From positions 175 through 64,174 of the forward strand of contig CAJOLY010000004.1 of the NCBI GenBank assembly GCA_905235485.1: DNA of 64,000 nt, written 5' to 3'. Positions 7,352 to 19,862 of this stretch are shown piece after piece (within the stretch, counting starts at the first letter, position 1; every line of letters begins with the position of its first letter). The position numbers and the translations under genes were made by a program. The notes under the pieces are model-generated. The model was not told where the DNA came from, did not search any database, and saw only the letters and a program-made list of their open reading frames with translations. The stretch comes from an uncultured Clostridia bacterium. GTDB lineage: Bacteria; Bacillota; Clostridia; Christensenellales; UBA1242.

Positions 7352-8650
7352 ATGGAAGAAATAAATTTGTTTCAAGACACAAAAAAATTTGCGCCACTTG
7401 CTGATAGGGTTAGACCTACAACTCTTGATGAATTTGTTGGGCAAACTCATATTATAAAAAAAGGTGGCATAATTGAAAAAGCTATAAAAAATGGAACGCT
7501 AGGTAGTTGTATATTTTATGGTCCACCTGGAACTGGAAAGACAACCCTTGCAAGCATTATTGCTAGTTCCAGTGGAGCAGTTTTCAAAAAACTTAATGCC
7601 ATAAATAGTGGAGTTGGTGATGCAAAGGAAGTAATTAGCGAGGCAAAACGCAATTTGGAACTTTATGGCAAACGAACATATCTACTACTTGATGAATGTC
7701 ATAGATGGAACAAAGCACAAAGTGATAGTGTTTTGGAAGCAATTGAAAATGGAAGCATAATTTTTATTGGGAGCACAACTGAAAATCCTTATACAAGTAT
7801 GACAAGAGCCATTGTTTCTAGATGCAGGATTTTTGAGTTTAAACCACTTGAAAAAAATGATATTAAACTTGCAATTTTAAACGCAATAAAGTCACCAAAA
7901 GGCCTTGCCGATTTTGATATTGATATAAGGCCAGATGCTTTAGATTATCTTGCTTTTGCAACAGGTGGAGACCTAAGAAAAGCACTTAACACTCTTGAAA
8001 TTGCAAGCACAACTGGAAAGATTGAAAATGGAAGAGTAATTATTGACAAGGAATTGATTTCCGAATGTCTTGATGAAAAAGTTATGAGTATTGATGAAAA
8101 TCAATATTATGATATGCTTTCAGCTTTCTGCAAAAGTATTCGTGGAAGTGATGCTGATAGTGCACTATTTTACGCTTTTCGTTTGATTGAAAGTGGAGTT
8201 GATCCGCTCATCATTTTTCGTAGGCTTATCGCCCACACAAGTGAAGATATTGGAATGGCAAATTCAAATGCAATGGTCGTTGCAGTTTCTGCAATGACAG
8301 CCTATCAAAATATGGGAAAACCAGAAGGACTTATTCCTATGACTCACGCTATAATTTATGCTTGTGAAAGTGATAAGTCAAATAGTGTGATTATTGCCAA
8401 AAATATGGCAGAGTTTGATGCAAAAAACCTAAAAACTGTTACTGTTCCAAATGCATTAAAAAATCATCCTTCAACAAATGATGATGGCACGGGAATGTAC
8501 AAATATCCTCACGACTATGGAGGTTATGTCTATCAACAATATATGCCAAAAGAACTTGAAGGGAAAGTGTATTACACACCACAAAAAAATGGATGTGAAA
8601 AGGATATGACACGCAAAAAAGTGTTTGAAAAGGATAAAAATAATTATTAA
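7352..8650 (+). CDS. rarA: replication-associated recombination protein A (AAA+ ATPase)
   Basis: Walker A GPPGTGKTT, LLLDECHRWNK box, and a MgsA-type C-terminal domain (...YKYPHDYGGYV...). Confidence 0.9.
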   Translation: MEEINLFQDTKKFAPLADRVRPTTLDEFVGQTHIIKKGGIIEKAIKNGTLGSCIFYGPPGTGKTTLASIIASSSGAVFKKLNAINSGVGDAKEVISEAKRNLELYGKRTYLLLDECHRWNKAQSDSVLEAIENGSIIFIGSTTENPYTSMTRAIVSRCRIFEFKPLEKNDIKLAILNAIKSPKGLADFDIDIRPDALDYLAFATGGDLRKALNTLEIASTTGKIENGRVIIDKELISECLDEKVMSIDENQYYDMLSAFCKSIRGSDADSALFYAFRLIESGVDPLIIFRRLIAHTSEDIGMANSNAMVVAVSAMTAYQNMGKPEGLIPMTHAIIYACESDKSNSVIIAKNMAEFDAKNLKTVTVPNALKNHPSTNDDGTGMYKYPHDYGGYVYQQYMPKELEGKVYYTPQKNGCEKDMTRKKVFEKDKNNY

Positions 8651-12386: not shown

Positions 12387-12688
12387 AATAGTTTTCACCT
12401 CCTGTGACGTTAAGGCTTTTGCCTTACAGTAATAGTTTGAGTTTTTTGTTGTAAATAATACAAAAATAGCACAACTTTTATTGGTAAATTATTCTATATA
12501 TTTAGCATAATTTTCCAAATAAAGCTAATTTTATCATATTATTTGTATAGTTAATTTATATAATAACCTAAGTACTATTACTTTAAGATCATATAGCAGG
12601 AAAAAATAAAATTTTTTTTAAAAATTTTTTGAAAACACTTGATTTTTTATTCTATATATGATATTCTTTAAGAGTCAAAGGCAAATAT

Positions 12689-12765
12689 GGGAGTTTAGCT
12701 CAGTTGGCTAGAGCATCTGCCTTACAAGCAGGAGGTCATAGGTTCGAGTCCTATAACTCCCACCA
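12689..12765 (+). tRNA. tRNA-Val (anticodon TAC)
   Basis: Full cloverleaf: acceptor GGGAGTT/AACTCCC, D stem GCTC/GAGC, anticodon loop CTTACAA, T arm ATAGG-TTCGAGT-CCTAT, encoded CCA. Confidence 0.95.
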
Positions 12766-12783
12766 ATCCTTTGACATTTTTAT

Positions 12784-12859
12784 GCGGGAGTGGCTCAGTT
12801 GGTAGAGCGTTACCTTGCCAAGGTAAATGTCGCGAGTTCGAGTCTCGTCTTCCGCTCCA
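12784..12859 (+). tRNA. tRNA-Gly (anticodon GCC)
   Basis: Acceptor GCGGGAG/CTTCCGC, anticodon stem TTACC/GGTAA with loop TTGCCAA, T arm GCGAG-TTCGAGT-CTCGT, encoded CCA. Confidence 0.95.
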
Positions 12860-12861
12860 TT

Positions 12862-12883
12862 ACAGCCTAGTGGCTGTTTTTTT
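12862..12883 (+). terminator. intrinsic terminator after the tRNA pair
   Basis: ACAGCC-TAGT-GGCTGT followed by T7. Confidence 0.75.
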
Positions 12884-12987
12884 AAAAATTTTATATAAAA
12901 TATGTAAATAATACTTGACATTTATTTTTGTTTGACATACAATAAAAATGTAAAGTAAACTTTACAATTATTAAGGGAGATTTTGTA

Positions 12988-13314
12988 ATGGAAAGAGAAG
13001 AAATTTTGGAAAAAAGCAGCCAAACTAAAAATCCAGTCGGAGAAATGGAAAAAACAAGAATCAGCAAAAGTGCGGTTATATCGCTTATTGTCGTTGCAAT
13101 TTTTGCAATTGCGTTTATAATTATTGAAGGTTTACTTGGTCATTTATCGAGCGTATATGCCATTGCAACCTTATGCTACTTGTGGGCATCAGTATTTTAT
13201 ACTCTTCAATATTTTTTGGCAAAAAGACCTTGGCAAGTGCTTATTGGAGCAGTACTTGAAGGACTTGCGGGAATTTATTTTATGATCAGATTTATCCTAT
13301 ATGTGGTGGCATAA
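12988..13314 (+). CDS. small integral membrane protein (3 predicted TM helices)
   Basis: 108-aa ORF with hydrophobic segments. It is translationally coupled to the downstream HTH gene (2-nt gap). Confidence 0.6.
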   Translation: MEREEILEKSSQTKNPVGEMEKTRISKSAVISLIVVAIFAIAFIIIEGLLGHLSSVYAIATLCYLWASVFYTLQYFLAKRPWQVLIGAVLEGLAGIYFMIRFILYVVA

Positions 13315-13316
13315 TT

Positions 13317-13526
13317 ATGGATAATAAAATAGTTTTAAAAAATAATATAAAATTATATAGAACACAACAAAATATCTCACAAGAGGAACTTGCAAAAATT
13401 GTTGGATCAACAAGACAAACAATCATTGCTATTGAAAAAGGTCAGTTTAATCCTTCCGCAAAACTTGCACTTTTAATTAGTTTGGCGCTAAATGTTGAAA
13501 TTGAAAAGTTGTTTTACTTGGAATAA
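13317..13526 (+). CDS. XRE-family helix-turn-helix transcriptional regulator (YozG-like, 69 aa)
   Basis: NISQEELAKIVGSTRQTIIAIEKGQFNPS is a classic XRE/Cro HTH. Confidence 0.85.
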   Translation: MDNKIVLKNNIKLYRTQQNISQEELAKIVGSTRQTIIAIEKGQFNPSAKLALLISLALNVEIEKLFYLE

Positions 13527-13615
13527 CTTAAAGAGGCTGAAATAAGTGTTTCAGTCTTTTTTTTAAATCTACAGTGCTTGTAAAACTTTGTAAATTGTTA
13601 TATAATTAAATTAGT

Positions 13616-14158
13616 ATGAAAATTTATATAATGCGACACGGAACAACAGTTTGGAATGAAAAGGGTATTACTCAAGGGAGAAGTCAAAACAGGTTAAGTC
13701 AAAGTGGCAAGGAACTTGTTGCACAAGTTTCAAAAAAATTTTCTAGTAATAAGATTGATGTTATTATTGCATCTCCACTTATGAGGACTATGCAAACTGC
13801 AAATATGATGAATAGATATCACAATGTGAAGATTATCAAAGATAAAAGATTGATTGAAATTGACAAGGGAATTTTTACTGGAAGAAATAGAAATAGTTTG
13901 ACAGAAAATGAAAAGTATCTTAGAAGTATAAATGACCCTATTTGTAAAATGGAAACTTATGAGCAAGTTTTTGAAAGAGTGAAATTGTTTTTTGATGACA
14001 TTAAATCAAATTGTAAGTTTAAAAATATTTTGGTTATAACACACGGAGTGGTGGCAGGTTTTTTGGAAATTATTATAACTAAAAAAGAATTTGATATAAG
14101 TACAAAAGGAAATATTAAGAAATTTAAGAATGCAGAAATCAAAAATTTTGAAATATGA
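13616..14158 (+). CDS. histidine phosphatase family protein (phosphoglycerate-mutase-like)
   Basis: N-terminal catalytic motif IMRHGTTVWN and a downstream conserved His (ITHGV). Confidence 0.8.
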   Translation: MKIYIMRHGTTVWNEKGITQGRSQNRLSQSGKELVAQVSKKFSSNKIDVIIASPLMRTMQTANMMNRYHNVKIIKDKRLIEIDKGIFTGRNRNSLTENEKYLRSINDPICKMETYEQVFERVKLFFDDIKSNCKFKNILVITHGVVAGFLEIIITKKEFDISTKGNIKKFKNAEIKNFEI

Positions 14159-14162
14159 ATAT

Positions 14163-14186
14163 AAAGCACTATAATGGTGCTTTTTT
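14163..14186 (+). terminator. intrinsic terminator
   Basis: AAAGCAC-TATAATG-GTGCTTT plus a T-run. Confidence 0.7.
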
Positions 14187-14287
14187 GATTAAGTTTATTT
14201 ATAGTCAATTTTTGTTGCCAAGCCGGACTAATGTCACAGCTTTCTTGGGTGGAGATTTCACTCACTTTGTTCGTAGAAACAAAAAAA

Positions 14288-14307
14288 AGTAAGTATTGCT
14301 ACTTACT
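14288..14307 (-). terminator. displaced ancestral tRNA-Leu terminator just outside the distal att repeat
   Basis: AGTAAGTA-TTGC-TACTTACT (8-bp stem) is followed on the minus strand by T8. It lies 1-2 nt beyond the duplicated tRNA 3' end. Confidence 0.6.
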
Positions 14308-14308
14308 C

Positions 14309-14321
14309 TGGTGCCGAAAGC
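14309..14321. repeat. att core direct repeat (distal copy; duplicated tRNA-Leu 3' end)
   Basis: Exact 13/13 match to 18858-18870. Confidence 0.8.
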
Positions 14322-14360
14322 ACCGGCAAAAAATTCAAAAAAGTCAGTAACATGTAGCAC

Positions 14361-14422
14361 TTTGACACACTTTTTAGGGTATAAAATTAAAATTGTTTTT
14401 CAACCTGTTTGACACACTTTTT
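14361..14422 (+). repeat. two copies of TTTGACACACTTTTT (candidate integrase arm-type sites, distal arm)
   Basis: Copies at 14361-14375 and 14408-14422 have the same sequence and orientation as the triple tandem at 18721-18760. Confidence 0.6.
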
Positions 14423-15025
14423 ATCCGGTCCAATAAAATATATGTTTATCTTCCTAAAAATGCACTTATATTTTAAGTGTATTTTTATTTGAGTTAAAAT
14501 AATATTTTTTTAATATAAAAGTAAGTTAAAAATATCTAAAAATATAAAAAATCACTGTCAAATATTCCGTTAGTATAGATACAGAAGAAATTGCCTTTTC
14601 AAGGCCCTTTCTTTTGTATCTATTGAGTGTTAACATAGCGAATATTATAAGCTTTGTGATAGCATATTTTTTTTTGTCTTTGTGGTAGTATAAGTATAAG
14701 TTTATATTACAACTTTTTTAAAGTGATATTATCAGCTTGAGTAGTAGTTTAATATATGAGTTAACATTCAAGGCAGTCAGCGCACTTGTGCTTAATCTGA
14801 CTGCCTTTTTTGAGTTTGTCGATAGAGCAAACTAACTCCGTAACAATCAACAATTTTGTAAAATGTTTGTGAATTAGTATAAATTTTGCCCAATAAAAAA
14901 ATACATTGTACTACAAGGATGGCAAATAAGCAAGTTAATTAGCCAAGAAAAACACAATGTATTTTTATCAATTAACAAGTCATATAACAAAAGTTAGATT
15001 TTTATAGGTTGTTAACTTGTCAAAA

Positions 15026-15043
15026 GGTTGCGATGTCGCAACC
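15026..15043. terminator. bidirectional hairpin terminating the element's leftward operon
   Basis: GGTTGCGA-TG-TCGCAACC perfect stem flanked by CAAAA and ATTTT. Confidence 0.6.
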
Positions 15044-15141
15044 ATTTTCAGATAAGTTGCAAATCTTTTCAAAAGTCATAAACTAACTAATAGTATTATG
15101 ACAAAAATAAATGTTTGTCAACAATTTTTTGAAAAAAAGTT

Positions 15142-15801
15142 TTATTTTTTAAAAAAATTTTGTTCAACATAATTATTTTCTATCAAAATATATTTTAAAT
15201 TTGTTTTAAATTGTTCGATAGTTAATCTTATAAGTTCCCTAGTGACATTAAATTTTCTGCCAATATCAGCAAATGAATAACCCTCTATAAATAAATCAAT
15301 ATATGCTGATATATTATCAGCTTTGCGAATTTTTCCGAATTTTGTTAAGCAGTTTTTTTGCTTTGCTAGTTCAATATATTTTTTTAATGTTTCATAATTT
15401 ATATTTGATTCTACATCATCATTAGACGCAATATAATTAGCAAATGTACCATCATCATCACCTATTTCATAATCAAGTGATAAATTTGCTTGTAATTCAC
15501 CTTTTAAAATTTTGTTATGTTTTAATCCATTACCAAAACGAAAATAAGTACCAACACGAGAACGAAAAACACGAACAATATATGTAGCATAAGACACATT
15601 TTTTGATATATCAAATTTTAATCTATAATGTGGAGCATATGAAATAACATATGCGAAAACATCACTATACAAAGTTTTATTTATACAAATATTTTTAAAA
15701 AACTTATGTAAAGTAAAATATAAAAGCTTACAATCTTCTTTATAATTTTCAAGAGTGTAATTTTCATTTTTTAATGAAACTAGTTTACTACCCATAGTCA
15801 C
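15142..15801 (-). CDS. sigma-70-family-like protein (divergent regions 2 and 4) carried on the integrative element
   Basis: DVFAYVISYAPHYRLKFDISKNVSYATYIVRVFRSRVGTYFR resembles sigma region 2. The C-terminal LFIEGYSFADIGRKFNVTRELIRLTIEQ resembles the region 4.2 HTH. Confidence 0.5.
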   Translation of the reverse strand: MTMGSKLVSLKNENYTLENYKEDCKLLYFTLHKFFKNICINKTLYSDVFAYVISYAPHYRLKFDISKNVSYATYIVRVFRSRVGTYFRFGNGLKHNKILKGELQANLSLDYEIGDDDGTFANYIASNDDVESNINYETLKKYIELAKQKNCLTKFGKIRKADNISAYIDLFIEGYSFADIGRKFNVTRELIRLTIEQFKTNLKYILIENNYVEQNFFKK

Positions 15802-16070
15802 ACCATAACAGAGCTATAATTGATTTGTAAATTTGCACATTTAGTGTTATTATTTGTACTTTTATCAGCCATAAAATAACCAATAAGAAAGTTAATATCA
15901 ACCATAGCAGATTGTAAAGATTTTAAAACAATATTATTTGCAATCATTTGTTTGCTATCATCAATAATATTCTTGTTAAGTTCAGAAAGTGAACCATATA
16001 AAAGACTTAAATAATTACTAATATTTTGCAAATTATTAGATATTTGATTTTTGTTTTCCATAAAAAGCAT
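15798..16070 (-). CDS. hypothetical protein (element)
   Basis: 90-aa ORF in the leftward operon whose stop overlaps the next start. No recognisable motif, and the start is uncertain. Confidence 0.45.
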   Translation of the reverse strand: MLFMENKNQISNNLQNISNYLSLLYGSLSELNKNIIDDSKQMIANNIVLKSLQSAMVDINFLIGYFMADKSTNNNTKCANLQINYSSVMV

Positions 16071-16386
16071 TACTCCTTTTTAAATAATTTTTATCATTTT
16101 TGTTGTACAGTTTGATATGTAGCTCATCACACAGTGCGAATATATCCATTATTAAAAATCGATATTGTGTAATTGCATATTTCAGTTCAGTGTATGTTGT
16201 TTCAGTAATTTGTTTTTCTTCCAGCAGAGTATTTATAAGTTTGTAAATTGGTTGTTCAGCTTCTACTTCTTTTGTAAGAAAATAGTCTATAACTTTGACT
16301 AAATCATCACTTTTTGAATAATACAAAGCATTTTTATTTGTTTGAGTGAGTTCAACATTTTCCATATTTTCCATTATTCCTGACAC
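16036..16386 (-). CDS. hypothetical protein (element)
   Basis: 116-aa ORF in the operon. Alternative starts exist at 16374 and 16365. Confidence 0.45.
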   Translation of the reverse strand: MSGIMENMENVELTQTNKNALYYSKSDDLVKVIDYFLTKEVEAEQPIYKLINTLLEEKQITETTYTELKYAITQYRFLIMDIFALCDELHIKLYNKNDKNYLKRSNAFYGKQKSNI

Positions 16387-16723
16387 TCCCTTTTTCTCTT
16401 TGAGAAAATTGTTTTTTTATTTTCATTACTTTTTCAAATAGAAAATGTAATGTTGTGTAGTTAAGTATAGTCCAGCTTTTATAAAACTTGTAGTCAAGTT
16501 CATTGTCAAGATATGTATTTTTTTGAATAGCTAATATAATGCAGTGGCACATAGTTTCAAAAGTTTTTTTTGTTGATAGTGATTTGTTTAATCTGATAAT
16601 ATTTTGACCATAGTCAATAGTGGCATAATATTTTTTGTCAATGTCTTTGAATGTAATTACATAATTGAGTCCGTAAAAATGCTCATTTAAATTTACATAA
16701 TTGTTATTTTGAATACTTCTCAT
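16352..16723 (-). CDS. hypothetical protein (element)
   Basis: 123-aa ORF. Its start ATG overlaps the end of the small upstream ORF. Confidence 0.5.
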   Translation of the reverse strand: MRSIQNNNYVNLNEHFYGLNYVITFKDIDKKYYATIDYGQNIIRLNKSLSTKKTFETMCHCIILAIQKNTYLDNELDYKFYKSWTILNYTTLHFLFEKVMKIKKQFSQREKGSVRNNGKYGKC

Positions 16724-16856
16724 CCTTAAAACCCCCTTTTAAATAGTCGATAAGTTCGCCAAATGTCTCAATTCCTTGCATTTTGGCTAATTCACTGATG
16801 ACTGTCAGTGTATGGCAAATTTCTTCGATTTTGCCTTCTAATACGATTTTTGACAT
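16704..16856 (-). CDS. small (50 aa) first gene of the leftward operon, possible Cro/excisionase-like HTH; not in the ORF track
   Basis: My own translation is MSKIVLEGKIEEICHTLTVISELAKMQGIETFGELIDYLKGGFKDEKYSK. AAAGGAG lies 10 nt upstream, and the gene is divergent from the XRE repressor. Confidence 0.45.
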   Translation of the reverse strand: MSKIVLEGKIEEICHTLTVISELAKMQGIETFGELIDYLKGGFKDEKYSK

Positions 16857-16874
16857 AACTTTTTTAACTCCTTT

Positions 16875-16955
16875 TTACATAAATTTTATGTTAACAATTT
16901 AAAAATAACATATTCTATATGTATATGTCAAACAAATTACATAAATTTTATGTAA
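16875..16955. promoter_or_regulatory. divergent control region with two copies of the palindrome TTACATAAA-T-TTTATGTAA (candidate operators)
   Basis: Copy 1 at 16875-16893 has one arm mismatch. Copy 2 at 16937-16955 is a perfect 19-bp palindrome. The centres are 62 bp apart, between the divergent genes. Confidence 0.6.
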
Positions 16956-17028
16956 AAAATTTTAAAATTAAAAAATGATTTGTTTTTTTATAAAAAAAAT
17001 GTAAAATTCTTATAGGGGGGAAAAATAT

Positions 17029-17340
17029 ATGAAATTGTTAGAATTAAGAAAACAAAAGAAAATAACACAAAGTGAATTAGCCAAAATATTAGAAATTAAG
17101 CAACAATATTACAGCAGATATGAAAACAATCAAGCCGAGCCAGACATTGAAACACTTTGCAAAATTGCCGATTATTACGGAGTTAGTTTGGACTATCTTT
17201 GTGAACACCAGAGCAAAGCACTTGAATTGCCAGCAAATTTGAGCCAAGACGACAAACAAACTATATTTGCATATTTAGCTTTACCAGAGTTAAAAAAAGC
17301 CGTTATTCGTGGAGAAATAAAGGCACTTGCAATTATTTAA
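17029..17340 (+). CDS. XRE/cI-like helix-turn-helix repressor (element)
   Basis: KKITQSELAKILEIKQQYYSRYENNQAEPDIETLCKIADYYGVSLDYL is a canonical XRE HTH. GGGGGG is the RBS. Confidence 0.85.
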   Translation: MKLLELRKQKKITQSELAKILEIKQQYYSRYENNQAEPDIETLCKIADYYGVSLDYLCEHQSKALELPANLSQDDKQTIFAYLALPELKKAVIRGEIKALAII

Positions 17341-17723
17341 GAGTATTTATCTGATAACCCCAGCAAAGCAAGTTTGCAAGGGTTAAAAATATTTTACTCT
17401 ATCAAAGTTTTGTAAAATTTTTTACGTGTTTATCTCCCGTAAGGCATAAAGCACTAGAAAAATTTGACAAAACAACAACCGAGAGAAAAAAAGGAGTATT
17501 AAAAATAATGTATACAAAATTAGATGAAACATTTTTTTAATACAAAGCACTTACAGAGCTAGAAAACAGCGAGAGAAACAAAGTTGCTTTAATCAGCAAG
17601 CTTGAAATGGAAGTTGCCGAAACTATGGGCAAAATTAAAATATTTAAACAAGTTTGCGAGCAAGCACAAACACAAAATAAAAGTGTTGTTATACCTACAT
17701 ATTTACTACCAAAGGGGGAAAAT

Positions 17724-18725
17724 ATGAAAGGAATAACAAAAAGAAAAGACGGGCGATATATGATAAGACTTGCAATAGATGGGCAAAAAGTATATTATTA
17801 CGCAAGCACATTTGCACGAGCTAAAAAAATACTAGAACTTTTAAAGCAAGAGCAAAAAAAATACAAAAGAGAAAAAAAGCCTGTAAAAAGACCAACAAAG
17901 AAAAAAGGCTTAACATTTAATAAATTTGCTGATAAGTGGTTAGAAACTTACAAAAAGCCATTTGTTAATAACCGAACTTTTAGCGATATAAAATCATTTA
18001 TCAATAGAATTGGTAAAGAACTAGGCGATTACACATTAAAAGAACTTGACGCATTTATAATACAAGAATATTTTAACAAGTTGCCAAAAGGTAGAACAAA
18101 AGAGAAAATGTTTACTTATTTTAATTCTATGTTACAAAAGGCTTGCGACTTAGATATTATTACTAAAAATCCATTTAATGCAGTTGTAAAAGATAAAAAA
18201 GTAAAATGTAAAAGCAATGCATATACTTTTAGCGAACAAGTTAAAATATTACAAGCAATAAAAAATACTGATATTGAACACGAAATTTACGTTTATTTAA
18301 TGTGTGGATGTAGACCAAACGAACTACCAAAAAACAAAGACTTCGATTTTGAGAATAATATTATTAATATTTATGGAACTAAAAACGATAATGCAAAGCA
18401 TAGGCAAGTAGAAATGAGCAAAGTGTTTGCAGAATATATGAAAGAATATTTTAAAATTCACTACATGCAAAATGCAAAATATATATCAACTAAATTTATT
18501 GAAATTTGTAACAAGTTAAAAATTAATAAGCCTTTAATTTATAAATTAAGACACACATTTGCAACTAATCACTTTACACTAGGAACTCCAACAAAGCAAG
18601 TGCAAGAATGGTTAGGGCATAGCAGTATATCAATGACTTTGGATCAATACACAGATATTGATAAGACTGCAACAAAAGAAAAAATAAGAGAACTCTATAA
18701 CCATTTTTATTATGAAAAAATTTGA
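17724..18725 (+). CDS. int: tyrosine-type site-specific integrase
   Basis: The N-terminus MKGITKRKDGRYMIRL is a typical arm-binding domain start. C-terminal catalytic residues are in context (LRHTFAT, WLGHSSISMTLDQYT). AGGGGGA RBS. The in-frame upstream extension to 17607 cannot be excluded. Confidence 0.85.
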   Translation: MKGITKRKDGRYMIRLAIDGQKVYYYASTFARAKKILELLKQEQKKYKREKKPVKRPTKKKGLTFNKFADKWLETYKKPFVNNRTFSDIKSFINRIGKELGDYTLKELDAFIIQEYFNKLPKGRTKEKMFTYFNSMLQKACDLDIITKNPFNAVVKDKKVKCKSNAYTFSEQVKILQAIKNTDIEHEIYVYLMCGCRPNELPKNKDFDFENNIINIYGTKNDNAKHRQVEMSKVFAEYMKEYFKIHYMQNAKYISTKFIEICNKLKINKPLIYKLRHTFATNHFTLGTPTKQVQEWLGHSSISMTLDQYTDIDKTATKEKIRELYNHFYYEKI

Positions 18726-18760
18726 CACACTTTTTGACACACTTTTTGACACACTTTTTT
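18721..18760 (+). repeat. three tandem copies of TTGACACACTTTT (13-bp period) overlapping the int stop codon
   Basis: The tandem units start about 18722, 18735 and 18748. They share sequence and orientation with the two copies near 14361-14422. Confidence 0.7.
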
Positions 18761-18835
18761 GTTAAAAAACTGTTAAAAATTGTTATATATTTATAATAAA
18801 AATTGTTAGTAAAATCAAACAAAATTACACAAAAA

Positions 18836-18856
18836 AAGCGAGTAAAAAACTCGCTT
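18836..18856 (-). terminator. element-borne terminator for the reconstituted tRNA-Leu
   Basis: AGCGAG...CTCGCT hairpin flanked by an A-run (T-run on the minus strand), immediately after the tRNA 3' end. Confidence 0.55.
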
Positions 18857-18857
18857 T

Positions 18858-18944
18858 TGGTGCCGAAAGCCGGACTTGAACCGGCACGGTATTGCTACCG
18901 AGGGATTTTAAGTCCCTTGCGTCTGCCTATTCCGCCATTTCGGC
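18858..18944 (-). tRNA. tRNA-Leu (anticodon TAA), long variable arm
   Basis: Reverse complement GCCGAAATGGCGGAATAGGCAGACGCAAGGGACTTAAAATCCCTCGGTAGCAATACCGTGCCGGTTCAAGTCCGGCTTTCGGCACCA. Acceptor GCCGAAA/TTTCGGC, anticodon loop CTTAAAA. Confidence 0.95.
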
Positions 18945-18947
18945 AAT

Positions 18948-19021
18948 TGGAGGCACCTCTCGGATTCGAACCGGGGATAAAGGTGTTGCAGACCTCTGCC
19001 TTACCACTTGGCTAAGGTGCC
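18948..19021 (-). tRNA. tRNA-Cys (anticodon GCA)
   Basis: Reverse complement GGCACCTTAGCCAAGTGGTAAGGCAGAGGTCTGCAACACCTTTATCCCCGGTTCGAATCCGAGAGGTGCCTCCA. Anticodon loop CTGCAAC. There is one C-A mismatch in the T stem. Confidence 0.85.
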
Positions 19022-19226
19022 ATAAACATAATCTAAAATAGCAAAAAAAGTATTTTTTGTCAAGTGTTAATCATATAATAATATGAATTTTTTTTGTATG
19101 ATGTTATTGCATGATAAATTTACAATTTATATTTACTAAACTTAGAAAATTTGGTTGATTTTGTTGAAAATTGTAACTTTGAGTGATATAATATTATAGT
19201 AAAATTTAATTCAAGGAGAGTGTAAT

Positions 19227-19862
19227 ATGTTAGATTTTATTAAAGACCATTGGCTTTTATTTGTTTTGATATTTATTTTACTTGTGCTTATTATTATTTT
19301 GTTGGTTGTTGCTCACAATGTAAAAAAGAAAAACCGAATAGAAGATGAGCTTGAAAGAGCAAGAGAAGAAGAGCAAAAGAACAAGAACAGGGTTAAGCCA
19401 ATTTTAAAAGAAAATTTAAAAAATAAAAAAGCAGAAGAAAAACAAAAAGAAAAAAAAGAGCAAAAGAATGTAGTTCAACCAAAAAAGGAACTTGTTGAAA
19501 AACAACCTGAAAGCAAAAAAGAAGAGAAAGAAATTCAAATTAAAAAAGAACACAAAAAGCAATCTGCTTCTCAAAAGAAACCTATGGAAAAGGAAATAGT
19601 TAAAAAAGAGCAATTGGAACAAAAACAACCAAAAAAAGTTGAGGAAAAGCAGGAAGAAAAGAAAATAAATGAAAATGAAACTTATAGAGTTGTATATGAC
19701 AAAGAACAAAAAAATTGGATAGTTCGTATTGATGGTGGTCAAAGGGCAAGTAGAAGATGCGCTACAAAAGAGGAAGCCTTAAAAGTTGCAAAAGAATTAG
19801 CAAAGAAAAAAGATGCTGATTTGAGTGTACATAAAAAGAATGGAAAATTTCAAAAGATTTAA
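19227..19862 (+). CDS. membrane-anchored K/E-rich protein with C-terminal DUF2188-like domain
   Basis: N-terminal TM (WLLFVLIFILLVLIIILLVV), a long KEEK low-complexity linker, and a C-terminus YRVVYDKEQKNWIVRIDGGQRASRRCATKEEALKVAKELAKKKDADLSVHKKNGKFQ of the DUF2188 pattern. Confidence 0.6.
   Translation: MLDFIKDHWLLFVLIFILLVLIIILLVVAHNVKKKNRIEDELERAREEEQKNKNRVKPILKENLKNKKAEEKQKEKKEQKNVVQPKKELVEKQPESKKEEKEIQIKKEHKKQSASQKKPMEKEIVKKEQLEQKQPKKVEEKQEEKKINENETYRVVYDKEQKNWIVRIDGGQRASRRCATKEEALKVAKELAKKKDADLSVHKKNGKFQKI

Follow-up and report, generated by a model that had tools for sequence, protein, structure and literature searches.

A 4.56-kb integrative element in a tRNA-Leu gene of an uncultured Clostridia bacterium and its relation to inovirus-like prophages

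Our analysis of a 64,000-nucleotide stretch of DNA from an uncultured Clostridia bacterium (contig CAJOLY010000004.1 of assembly GCA_905235485.1; hereafter the window, in whose numbering coordinates are given unless another locus is named) identifies positions 14309-18870 as a discrete integrative element in a tRNA-Leu(UAA) gene. With about even confidence, we take it to be a non-autonomous mini integrative element from a lineage related to the tRNA-integrating, inovirus-like prophages of uncultured Clostridia. That it is an integrative element at all seems secure because its attachment (att) architecture is discrete and typical of a family, its genes are intact and its relatives include circular molecules. 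An earlier note, made by a model from the sequence alone, had proposed a tRNA-Leu element with just these boundaries and this gene content, and our data agree with it, the open reading frames (ORFs) being as it listed them. Its further idea of a minimalist satellite or a stripped-down island survives in part, in that a lineage could be traced, namely a line of ~5-kb mini-elements related to inovirus-like prophages, of which the element is a member without a replication (Rep) gene.

The tRNA-Leu(UAA) gene that served as integration target lies at 18858-18944 on the minus strand (ARAGORN; Rfam tRNA 58.6 bits) with tRNA-Cys adjoining at 18948-19021 (minus strand), and its last 13 nt (18858-18870), CCA included, make up the attR core. 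The distal copy of this tRNA 3' end, TGGTGCCGAAAGC as read on the plus strand, forms the attL core at 14309-14321. These are the only two copies in the window, even when one mismatch is allowed, against 0.01 expected. A 14-mer, TTGACACACTTTTT, occurs five times in the window (0.22 expected), and all copies sit no more than 115 bp inside the element ends: two on the P' arm (14362-14375 and 14409-14422, plus strand; 41 and 88 nt inside attL) and three on the P arm, where they form tandem repeats TTGACACACTTT with a 12-nt period (18722-18759, plus strand) that start within the int stop codon. Judged by sequence and position, the five copies are likely integrase arm-type sites, and since their placement matches the arm-site layout of an attP, the element boundaries gain further support. 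Consistent with this, the layout of core plus arms is found in the attP of two circular relatives (L170, L178; see below), and position and number of the P-arm repeats recur in L087, L170/L171 and L178, each element having a repeat sequence of its own. The integrase gene ends 133 nt from tRNA-Leu, and at 18834-18858 (minus strand) a terminator scan revealed a hairpin with a 10-bp stem and T7 (fold z = -7.6), an element-borne substitute terminator for the tRNA operon as the earlier note had assumed; homologous hairpins are present in the attP of L178 and L170. From these boundaries, the attP junction that we searched for reads ...AAAAAACTCGCTTT, core TGGTGCCGAAAGC, ACCGGCAAAAAATTCAAAAAAGTCAG, and the predicted attB junction reads ...GCTACTTACTC, the same core, CGGACTTGAACCGG.

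Next to the tRNA, the element encodes a tyrosine integrase of 333 aa (17724-18725, plus strand; from MKGITKRK, the likely start of an ORF that is open from 17607) with matches to Pfam Phage_integrase (6.5e-15), SAM_3 and PHROG 1 (1e-44). Its homologs (n = 214) are 49-69% identical, and R197, K220, R276, H299 and Y309 occupy columns that are invariant or nearly so in an alignment of 24 sequences, by which the integrase is judged intact and conserved in its catalytic positions. Upstream of int and divergent from the remaining genes is an XRE/RstR-like repressor of 103 aa (17029-17340, plus strand; Pfam HTH_3 1.3e-20), which aligns at full length with NCBIfam phage_RstR (E = 5.7e-19; 68 bits, cutoff 80) and, at 30% identity and again full length, with the annotated repressor of Bajarodino virus 12, a member of the Inoviridae. 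The immunity region (16875-16955) holds two 19-bp palindromes TTACATAAATTTTATGTAA, an imperfect one at 16875-16893 and a perfect one at 16937-16955, and between these candidate operators sits a leftward promoter (TTGACA-18-TATTTT, 16931-16902). The gene order agrees with the cI-like repressor divergent from a five-gene leftward operon that the earlier note had described. Relatives have the same switch layout, each with its own palindrome.

The five leftward ORFs (50, 123, 116, 90 and 219 aa, all on the minus strand) overlap or abut one another, and strong Shine-Dalgarno sequences precede four of the five. The last of them (15142-15801) encodes what the earlier note had called a sigma-70-like protein. 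Single-sequence matches of this 219-aa protein are weak (PHROG 351/1740 sigma factor 8e-6; NCBIfam sigma70-ECF 1e-5; below Pfam cutoffs). A full HMMER search retrieved 16 remote homologs, and a profile of 15 of them reached SigA/RpoD in the PDB at E = 1.5e-10, region 2 and regions 3/4 being matched separately, which bears out the call over regions 2 and 4; Pfam Sigma70_r2 is matched by 6 and r4 by 3 of the same 15. On this evidence, the protein is a real but very divergent member of the sigma-70 family. A word-indexed homolog search with its gene returned no sequence besides itself, and INPHARED held neither a protein match to it nor a DNA match to the element. A sigma-like gene is also found behind the immunity switch of L086, a larger relative, and of L175, an unrelated serine-recombinase element. 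Since the sigma gene sits behind the switch, its product should act after derepression.

Of the other operon genes, only the first, o50 (16704-16856), is common to other mini-elements, with homologs of 49 aa in L178 (E = 2.7e-11) and 44 aa in L087 (z = 8.1, 0/500 shuffles). It is followed by o123 (16352-16723; strong Shine-Dalgarno), o116 (16036-16386; a predicted helical hairpin, for which gene callers choose a 112-aa start) and o90 (15798-16070; 87-aa start in gene callers). None of the four matches a family in Pfam, PHROGs, NCBIfam or PADLOC, and none shows a transmembrane (TM) segment or a Walker A, HUH or HExxH motif, so that profile searches of the five small ORFs, as suggested in the earlier note, paid off for the sigma-like protein and not for these four. 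AlphaFold2 models of o123 (pLDDT 46) and o116 (pLDDT 66, three helices) are too weak or too generic for a fold search. We also considered o123 as a degenerate homolog of an HExxH protein of L087 and L178 and dropped the idea, as the alignment is no better than with shuffled sequences (z = 0.37).

What ties the element to a lineage is its integrase and repressor, the sole parts conserved at the DNA level among relatives (70-77% identity). These relatives fall into two size classes, large (11-13 kb or more) and small (~4.5-5 kb). In L170, a unit of 12,963 bp is repeated head to tail (0 mismatches over 8.1 kb), a concatemer that speaks for a circular molecule; L171 represents this element in integrated form, in tRNA-Met. 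The attP deduced from the pair consists of three int-side arm repeats, a terminator hairpin, the core and, beyond the core, three further arm repeats, a design that the window element follows. Rolling-circle Rep genes (Pfam Rep_1 or REP_ORF2-G2P; PHROG 3419) are present in L173, L174 and L092, along with genes for 276-308-aa proteins with an N-terminal Walker A motif and several for proteins with N-terminal TM segments. Both Walker A proteins that were scanned (L173, L174) match Zot-like PHROGs (PHROG 197) with E-values of 7.5e-9 and 1.9e-5, and the Zot of L174 shares 36% identity with the protein annotated as Zot in Bajarodino virus 12 (PQ006185.1), whose 9,828-bp circular genome is classified as Inoviridae and also has an integrase and a repressor. 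L086, at least 11 kb long, has the closest integrase (69%). Its leftward operon opens with the gene for a clear homolog of the sigma protein (5e-28), and it has membrane proteins with homologs in the Zot-bearing L173. As an observation on L170 in its own right, three ~30-bp direct repeats GTTGGTTAGTTTTCATACACAAACTCAATTTT by its attP (L170 11250-11700), near a DnaD-like or replication-initiator gene, are likely an iteron origin.

Closest in size are two small elements. L178, from a metagenome (Logan SRR31860950), is a 5,084-bp contig with a 30-nt end overlap, across which a split sigma-like ORF rejoins as an intact 284-aa protein, so we read it as a 5,054-bp circle. Besides the sigma-like protein, whose gene belongs to the corresponding operon, it encodes Int (66% identity), XRE (E = 1e-46), the 49-aa o50 homolog, a putative metallopeptidase, an 80-aa protein and, in the place of the 0.8 kb that is non-coding in the window element, a rolling-circle Rep of 316 aa (REP_ORF2-G2P). 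Its attP core TGGTGCCGAAGGC is one base off the window core, and we regard L178 as an undescribed sister element. L087 is a ~4.48-kb insertion in the tRNA-Leu(UAA) gene of a host that is clearly another one (83% identity between the two tRNAs). Its features are an 11-bp direct repeat, one plus three arm repeats, the o50 homolog and a sigma-like protein of 267 aa (hhalign E = 2.9e-5). Rep is absent, and in the place that is non-coding in the window element lies ~1 kb of mostly non-coding DNA. Neither L087 nor L178 conserves o123, o116 and o90, other small genes being present instead. The window element is one of at least three mini-elements of common plan (with L087 and L178) and one of the two that are Rep-less.

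In line with the earlier note, no replication, packaging or transfer genes were detected in the element by Pfam, PHROGs, NCBIfam, PADLOC and motif scans. More specifically, a pI/Zot-like ATPase found no match in Pfam, PHROGs or NCBIfam, and no element ORF has a Walker A motif; the ORFs are likewise free of HUH motifs and of matches to rolling-circle Rep (pII/Rep). No gene was seen for a replication module of the kind (primase, or Rep plus origin) that satellites such as the phage-inducible chromosomal islands (PICI), P4-like, PICMI (see below) and RS1-type elements have. Coat or adsorption proteins were sought by hydropathy, and no protein of the element has a 19-residue window of 1.6 or more, a feature of many proteins in its relatives. 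Pfam, PHROGs and NCBIfam gave no relaxase, type IV coupling protein (T4CP) or known oriT in the element; PADLOC gave no defence genes, its sole matches being generic helix-turn-helix (HTH) models for the repressor; and Rfam on 12500-19300 (E ≤ 1) gave four tRNAs plus noise.

This leaves the non-coding part. Between 14322 and 15141 there is no ORF of 40 aa or more and there are no iterons, a tblastn search of 14159-15145 for a Rep pseudogene returned no match better than E = 1, and GC content is host-like across the whole element. Some 100 nt 3' of the operon, a palindrome GGTTGCGATGTCGCAACC (15023-15046; fold z = -4.9) is likely an operon terminator or protein-binding site, going by its sequence and place; TTGCGAnGTnGCAA, which it contains, was seen solely there and at the equivalent place of L087 among the loci fetched by then. 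Further from the operon lies a fragment of an XRE gene, the pseudogene QTFYKIVDCYGVSLLY (14822-14869, minus strand), which is in frame and, in inverted orientation, 85% identical at the DNA level to 17150-17197; a plus-strand transcript over this fragment would be antisense to the repressor mRNA. Another structure is a long near-perfect hairpin with 23-nt arms (14575-14623; DNA fold -14.3 kcal/mol, z = -9.8), which by its fold is a candidate cis-acting site. The Logan assembly of ERR3525316 splits the locus exactly at this hairpin, where the contigs L004 and L005 end. A plus-strand terminator-like hairpin is present within 14322-15141 as well.

Two further features occupy the spacer between XRE and int. 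A 69-nt block (17407-17474, plus strand) that includes the 22-mer GTTTATCTCCCGTAAGGCATAA is single-copy in the window and 83% identical to L178 4174-4241, directly upstream of the L178 Rep gene; L086 has the first 12 nt of the block again in an intergenic gap (7937-7958, minus strand), and the opposite strand of the block holds a conserved 5-codon mini-ORF, MP[YN]GR. The block may serve as an origin, as a promoter or as a leader. Downstream of it, a 10-codon ORF with a strong Shine-Dalgarno (MYTKLDETFF; 17508-17540, plus strand) is closed by a TAA within a T7 run; its frame is that of int and, past the TAA, stays open without a further stop into int (region 17492-17723). L086 and L178 keep the peptide, the T7 run, the TAA and the amino-acid sequence downstream; L087 keeps the T7 run, but there the downstream ORF is in another frame. 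Control of Int by a leader peptide or by recoding at this site is a possible function.

On the basis of these parts, we propose how a non-autonomous mini-element of this kind might work. In the resting state, the repressor would shut the leftward operon off; upon derepression the operon would be expressed and the sigma factor could redirect host RNA polymerase to promoters of the element or of a helper. Integrase would excise the element at the 13-bp core, which is plausible. As the element has no genes for Rep, an assembly ATPase or coat proteins, replication and export would need a related helper, and we envisage that a co-resident relative supplies both in trans, acting on non-coding cis sites, for which the hairpins and the 22-nt block also seen upstream of the L178 Rep are candidates. 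Going by its gene content, the element can probably neither replicate nor spread without such a helper. When resident, it may confer repressor-based immunity to phages that share its operators. In favour of function rather than decay, the retained parts are intact, a second Rep-less element of the same size (L087) resides in another host and there is no Rep debris.

The site itself offers a glimpse of what may have gone before. The earlier note had taken the hairpin and T8 immediately outside attL (14280-14307 as read on the minus strand; 8-bp stem, fold z = -4.7), which it placed at 14288-14307, for the ancestral terminator of the tRNA displaced by the insertion. We do not share this view, as the hairpin resembles the integrase-side terminator of the element's own family: the outside flank (AACAAAAAAAAG plus hairpin) matches that of L178, and 14278-14357 aligns with the L178 attP at 75% across the core. 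The flank as a whole (14213-14308, minus strand) is composed of AGTCCGGCTTGGCA, a spacer of ~45 nt and the hairpin with T8. AGTCCGGCTTGGCA, read on the minus strand, is a degenerate copy of the last ~18 nt of tRNA-Leu that includes a 10-mer, AAGCCGGACT, at 14220-14229. This 10-mer is found solely there and in tRNA-Leu (0.03 expected by chance), so the suspicion that a second short tRNA match is the scar of an older event gains ground, at 14220-14229 rather than 14218-14228. The ~95-nt flank looks partly conserved beside the L087 element too, where a 25-nt block in common lies equally far from the core and a tRNA-like remnant comes next; the similarity stands out from shuffled sequences (z = 5.6), but tiled controls reached similar scores, which makes it moderate evidence. 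Together, the likeness to the L178 attP, the tRNA-Leu remnant and the L087 flank point, with moderate strength, to a scrap of an earlier tandem element, almost fully deleted and leaving its terminator and distal att scar, as the more likely origin of the flank than an ancestral host terminator.

Such deletion bears on the alternative that we take most seriously, if with clearly less confidence than the reading above, namely that the element is an inert remnant: a full-size or L178-like filamentous prophage may have lost Rep and late genes to become a cryptic stub that no longer transfers. Its persistence, if there is a reason for it, would be due to repressor immunity; otherwise the loss could simply be recent. 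Its fixation, with one and the same sequence wherever the species was sighted, would fit, and so would the XRE pseudogene fragment, the 0.8 kb free of genes exactly where L178 has its Rep, the lack of a helper in the window and a left flank that tells of decay happening at this very site. Yet int, both sets of arm sites, the perfect 13-bp cores, both operators and five ORFs with Shine-Dalgarno or coupled starts are all intact, L087 represents a second Rep-less element of near-equal size and layout in a different host, and a decayed Rep, whose traces one would expect after decay in situ, has left none. At the other extreme is the bolder and rather doubtful scenario that the window element, L087 and L178 form a family, as yet undescribed, of integrative mini-satellites, 4.5-5 kb in size, that belong to filamentous phages of Gram-positive hosts. 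Each would have its own integrase, a heteroimmune RstR-type switch and a private sigma factor for switching on or hijacking the late genes of a helper, and the Rep-less members would be replicated and exported wholly in trans through cis sites in the 0.8-kb segment. Were this true, the sigma factor would be analogous to P4 delta or RS1 RstC, acting by replacement of the promoter-specificity subunit of RNA polymerase, and the Rep-less members would be among the smallest integrative satellites known.

Three other explanations seem improbable to us. Small integrative mobilisable elements (IMEs) are generally described in a way that suits an integrase and a rolling-circle-type Rep in a ~5-kb circle, which is what L178 is, and so the Rep of the lineage might serve as a relaxase, a conjugative element might do the mobilising and the window copy be a cis-mobilisable element (CIME) that keeps an oriT alone, a role in which its strong non-coding hairpins could act. 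We consider this unlikely since the shared module ties the lineage to Zot-like ATPases and a GenBank Inoviridae genome rather than to type IV secretion or coupling-protein genes, the Rep matches phage G2P and phage rolling-circle replication (RCR) families, and the window element yielded no relaxase, T4CP or known oriT. Slightly less likely still, o123, o116 or o90, complete orphans as they are, could provide replication or transfer by an unrecognised mechanism that needs no helper; these proteins, however, are small (87-123 aa), have no HUH, Walker A or TM motifs and are not kept in L087 or in L178, which relies on a canonical Rep. No more probable than that is a domesticated cassette, in which the host would keep the repressor and sigma pair for control of its own genes and integrase and att sites would be relics. 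Fixation in the species and the lack of obvious sigma targets inside the element are in keeping with domestication, but integrase and arm sites are fully intact and family-typical, the sigma gene lies behind a phage-type immunity switch and related genera do not have the element.

Several of our observations nevertheless count against a mobile, helper-dependent mini-element of inovirus-like descent. All 6/6 contigs of the species (L001-L004, L176, L177) carry the identical element in identical context, and no empty site was found in the species. The element is present in run ERR3525316 and in the assemblies ERZ27234816, ERZ28573638 and ERZ1667847. The predicted attP junction is missing from IMG/VR, so the circular excised form for which the earlier note had advised a search was not recovered, and circles were seen solely for relatives; no relative of the larger elements that might be a helper is present elsewhere in the window. 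The XRE pseudogene fragment shows some decay or rearrangement in the non-coding part, whose role as a cis site we purely infer, and the 22-nt block is inconsistently oriented relative to its neighbouring genes across the three elements that have it. The sigma homology of L087 and L178 is weak (hhalign 2.9e-5; phmmer 3.8e-7 between the two; no direct profile match for L178). Finally, small ORFs with neither a family match nor an informative fold may hide an unrecognised replication function.

How does the element compare with known systems? In function it comes closest to filamentous prophages of Vibrio cholerae that are satellites or defective (RS1; TLC satellite phage) and to minimalist satellites such as PICMI. 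RS1 is a satellite of CTXphi (PMC11389934). Like RS1 and TLC of V. cholerae, which have CTXphi or fs2-type helpers, the window element is a very small integrated relative of filamentous phages with an RstR-like repressor and element-specific operators, and it is devoid of morphogenesis (Zot/pI) and coat genes so that it could spread only with the aid of a helper. RS1 has retained a Rep of its own (RstA) and relies on host XerCD for integration at dif. The window element, on the other hand, has its own tyrosine integrase with arm sites, a tRNA target and no Rep, a sigma factor in place of the RstC antirepressor, and a host known as a metagenome-assembled genome (MAG) of Gram-positive-type Clostridia. 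Integrated inoviruses have been mined by way of pI (Roux et al., 'Cryptic inoviruses', bioRxiv 10.1101/548222). With these and with Bajarodino virus 12 the element shares an integrase beside a repressor, divergent genes and, in a tRNA gene, att direct repeats no shorter than 10 bp, and its larger relatives have Zot and RCR Rep genes; unlike these inoviruses, it is without pI/Zot, Rep and TM coat protein and about half the size of the smallest such genomes. Phage-inducible chromosomal minimalist islands (PICMI) of the Vibrionaceae depend on a helper for packaging (PMC10803314) and are alike in having about six genes, large non-coding stretches, pseudogene scraps and an integrase plus a regulator. 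PICMIs differ in that they encode primase, AlpA and Fis and parasitise virulent tailed phages, whereas the window element has no replication gene, has a cI/RstR-type switch plus sigma and has filamentous rather than tailed phages for kin. Even from its sister L178 the element is set apart by the Rep and putative metallopeptidase there and by o123, o116 and o90 here. Having no pI, Rep or coat, it does not qualify as an inovirus, and with no replication module and no known helper it does not fall into a characterised satellite family either; the best description is that of a non-autonomous derivative of filamentous phages that integrate. Its novelty lies in a tRNA-targeting integrase chassis among Clostridia, a very small size and a sigma factor as main cargo.

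These findings may be of wider interest as what is known of filamentous phages in Gram-positive anaerobes of gut and rumen comes almost entirely from pI-based mining, to which elements without pI are invisible. Here, one chassis of integrase, repressor and att sites serves ~13-kb prophages with Zot and Rep as well as 4.5-5-kb elements, some of them Rep-less. If the small elements are mobile, the satellite (hitcher) concept would extend to Gram-positive inoviruses, with a sigma factor as main cargo; if they are dead ends, they would record how filamentous prophages decay at tRNA sites and how a stub of repressor plus sigma persists. Either way, testable sequences are at hand in the attP and attB junctions, the operators, the arm sites and the candidate origin block.

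As for the host, the flanking genes belong to an uncultured Clostridia lineage whose best GTDB representative is a MAG from sheep rumen (FakA 90% identical). The empty site that the earlier note had hoped for was found in a related genus and not within the species: in L045 (FakA 71% identical), tRNA-Leu(UAA) is followed directly by a terminator and then by a homolog of the gene beyond the element. In L008, from a related genus, tRNA-Leu(UAA) is occupied by a different element (L008 15197-21650), which has a 427-aa integrase (28% identity), a cI/Cro-like pair and an HNH-like gene. Scans of IMG/VR with the integrase, sigma, o123 and o116 gave no match, and a scan of metagenome contigs with the integrase alignment gave mostly unrelated integrases. 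One integrase relative (48% identity) next to tRNA-Arg in L093 has at least six tandem XRE genes upstream of int (L093 6887-9800), two with duplicated HTH domains and all sharing a C-terminal motif (...EKQKEL.P.IQ.LN..QCQR.YDY..GML); an 11-bp "direct repeat" in this locus was discarded as a chance match inside a gene.

Among the contigs of the species, the L003 strain is identical to the window over ~10 kb save for 20 single-nucleotide differences in the DUF6442-XRE-His_Phos genes (13135-13879) to the left of the element, a patch that looks like local recombination. Gene calls for L002 and L177 differ (integrase of 389 vs 372 aa; a 217-aa sigma protein) with identical DNA, so this is a matter of gene calling, possibly with another translation table, and not sequence variation. 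The surroundings of the target are rearranged, too. The tRNA-Val, Gly, Cys and Leu genes form one co-oriented cluster in L008, L045, L046, L088 and L092; in the window, tRNA-Val-Gly (12689-12859, plus strand) and Leu-Cys (18858-19021, minus strand) are split, with the host genes for DUF6442, XRE and His_Phos as well as the element between them. L087 has the same split of Val-Gly (plus) and Leu (minus), its contig stopping within tRNA-Leu and thus not covering Cys. This implies an inversion with one end between tRNA-Gly and tRNA-Cys that is possibly linked to the integration site.

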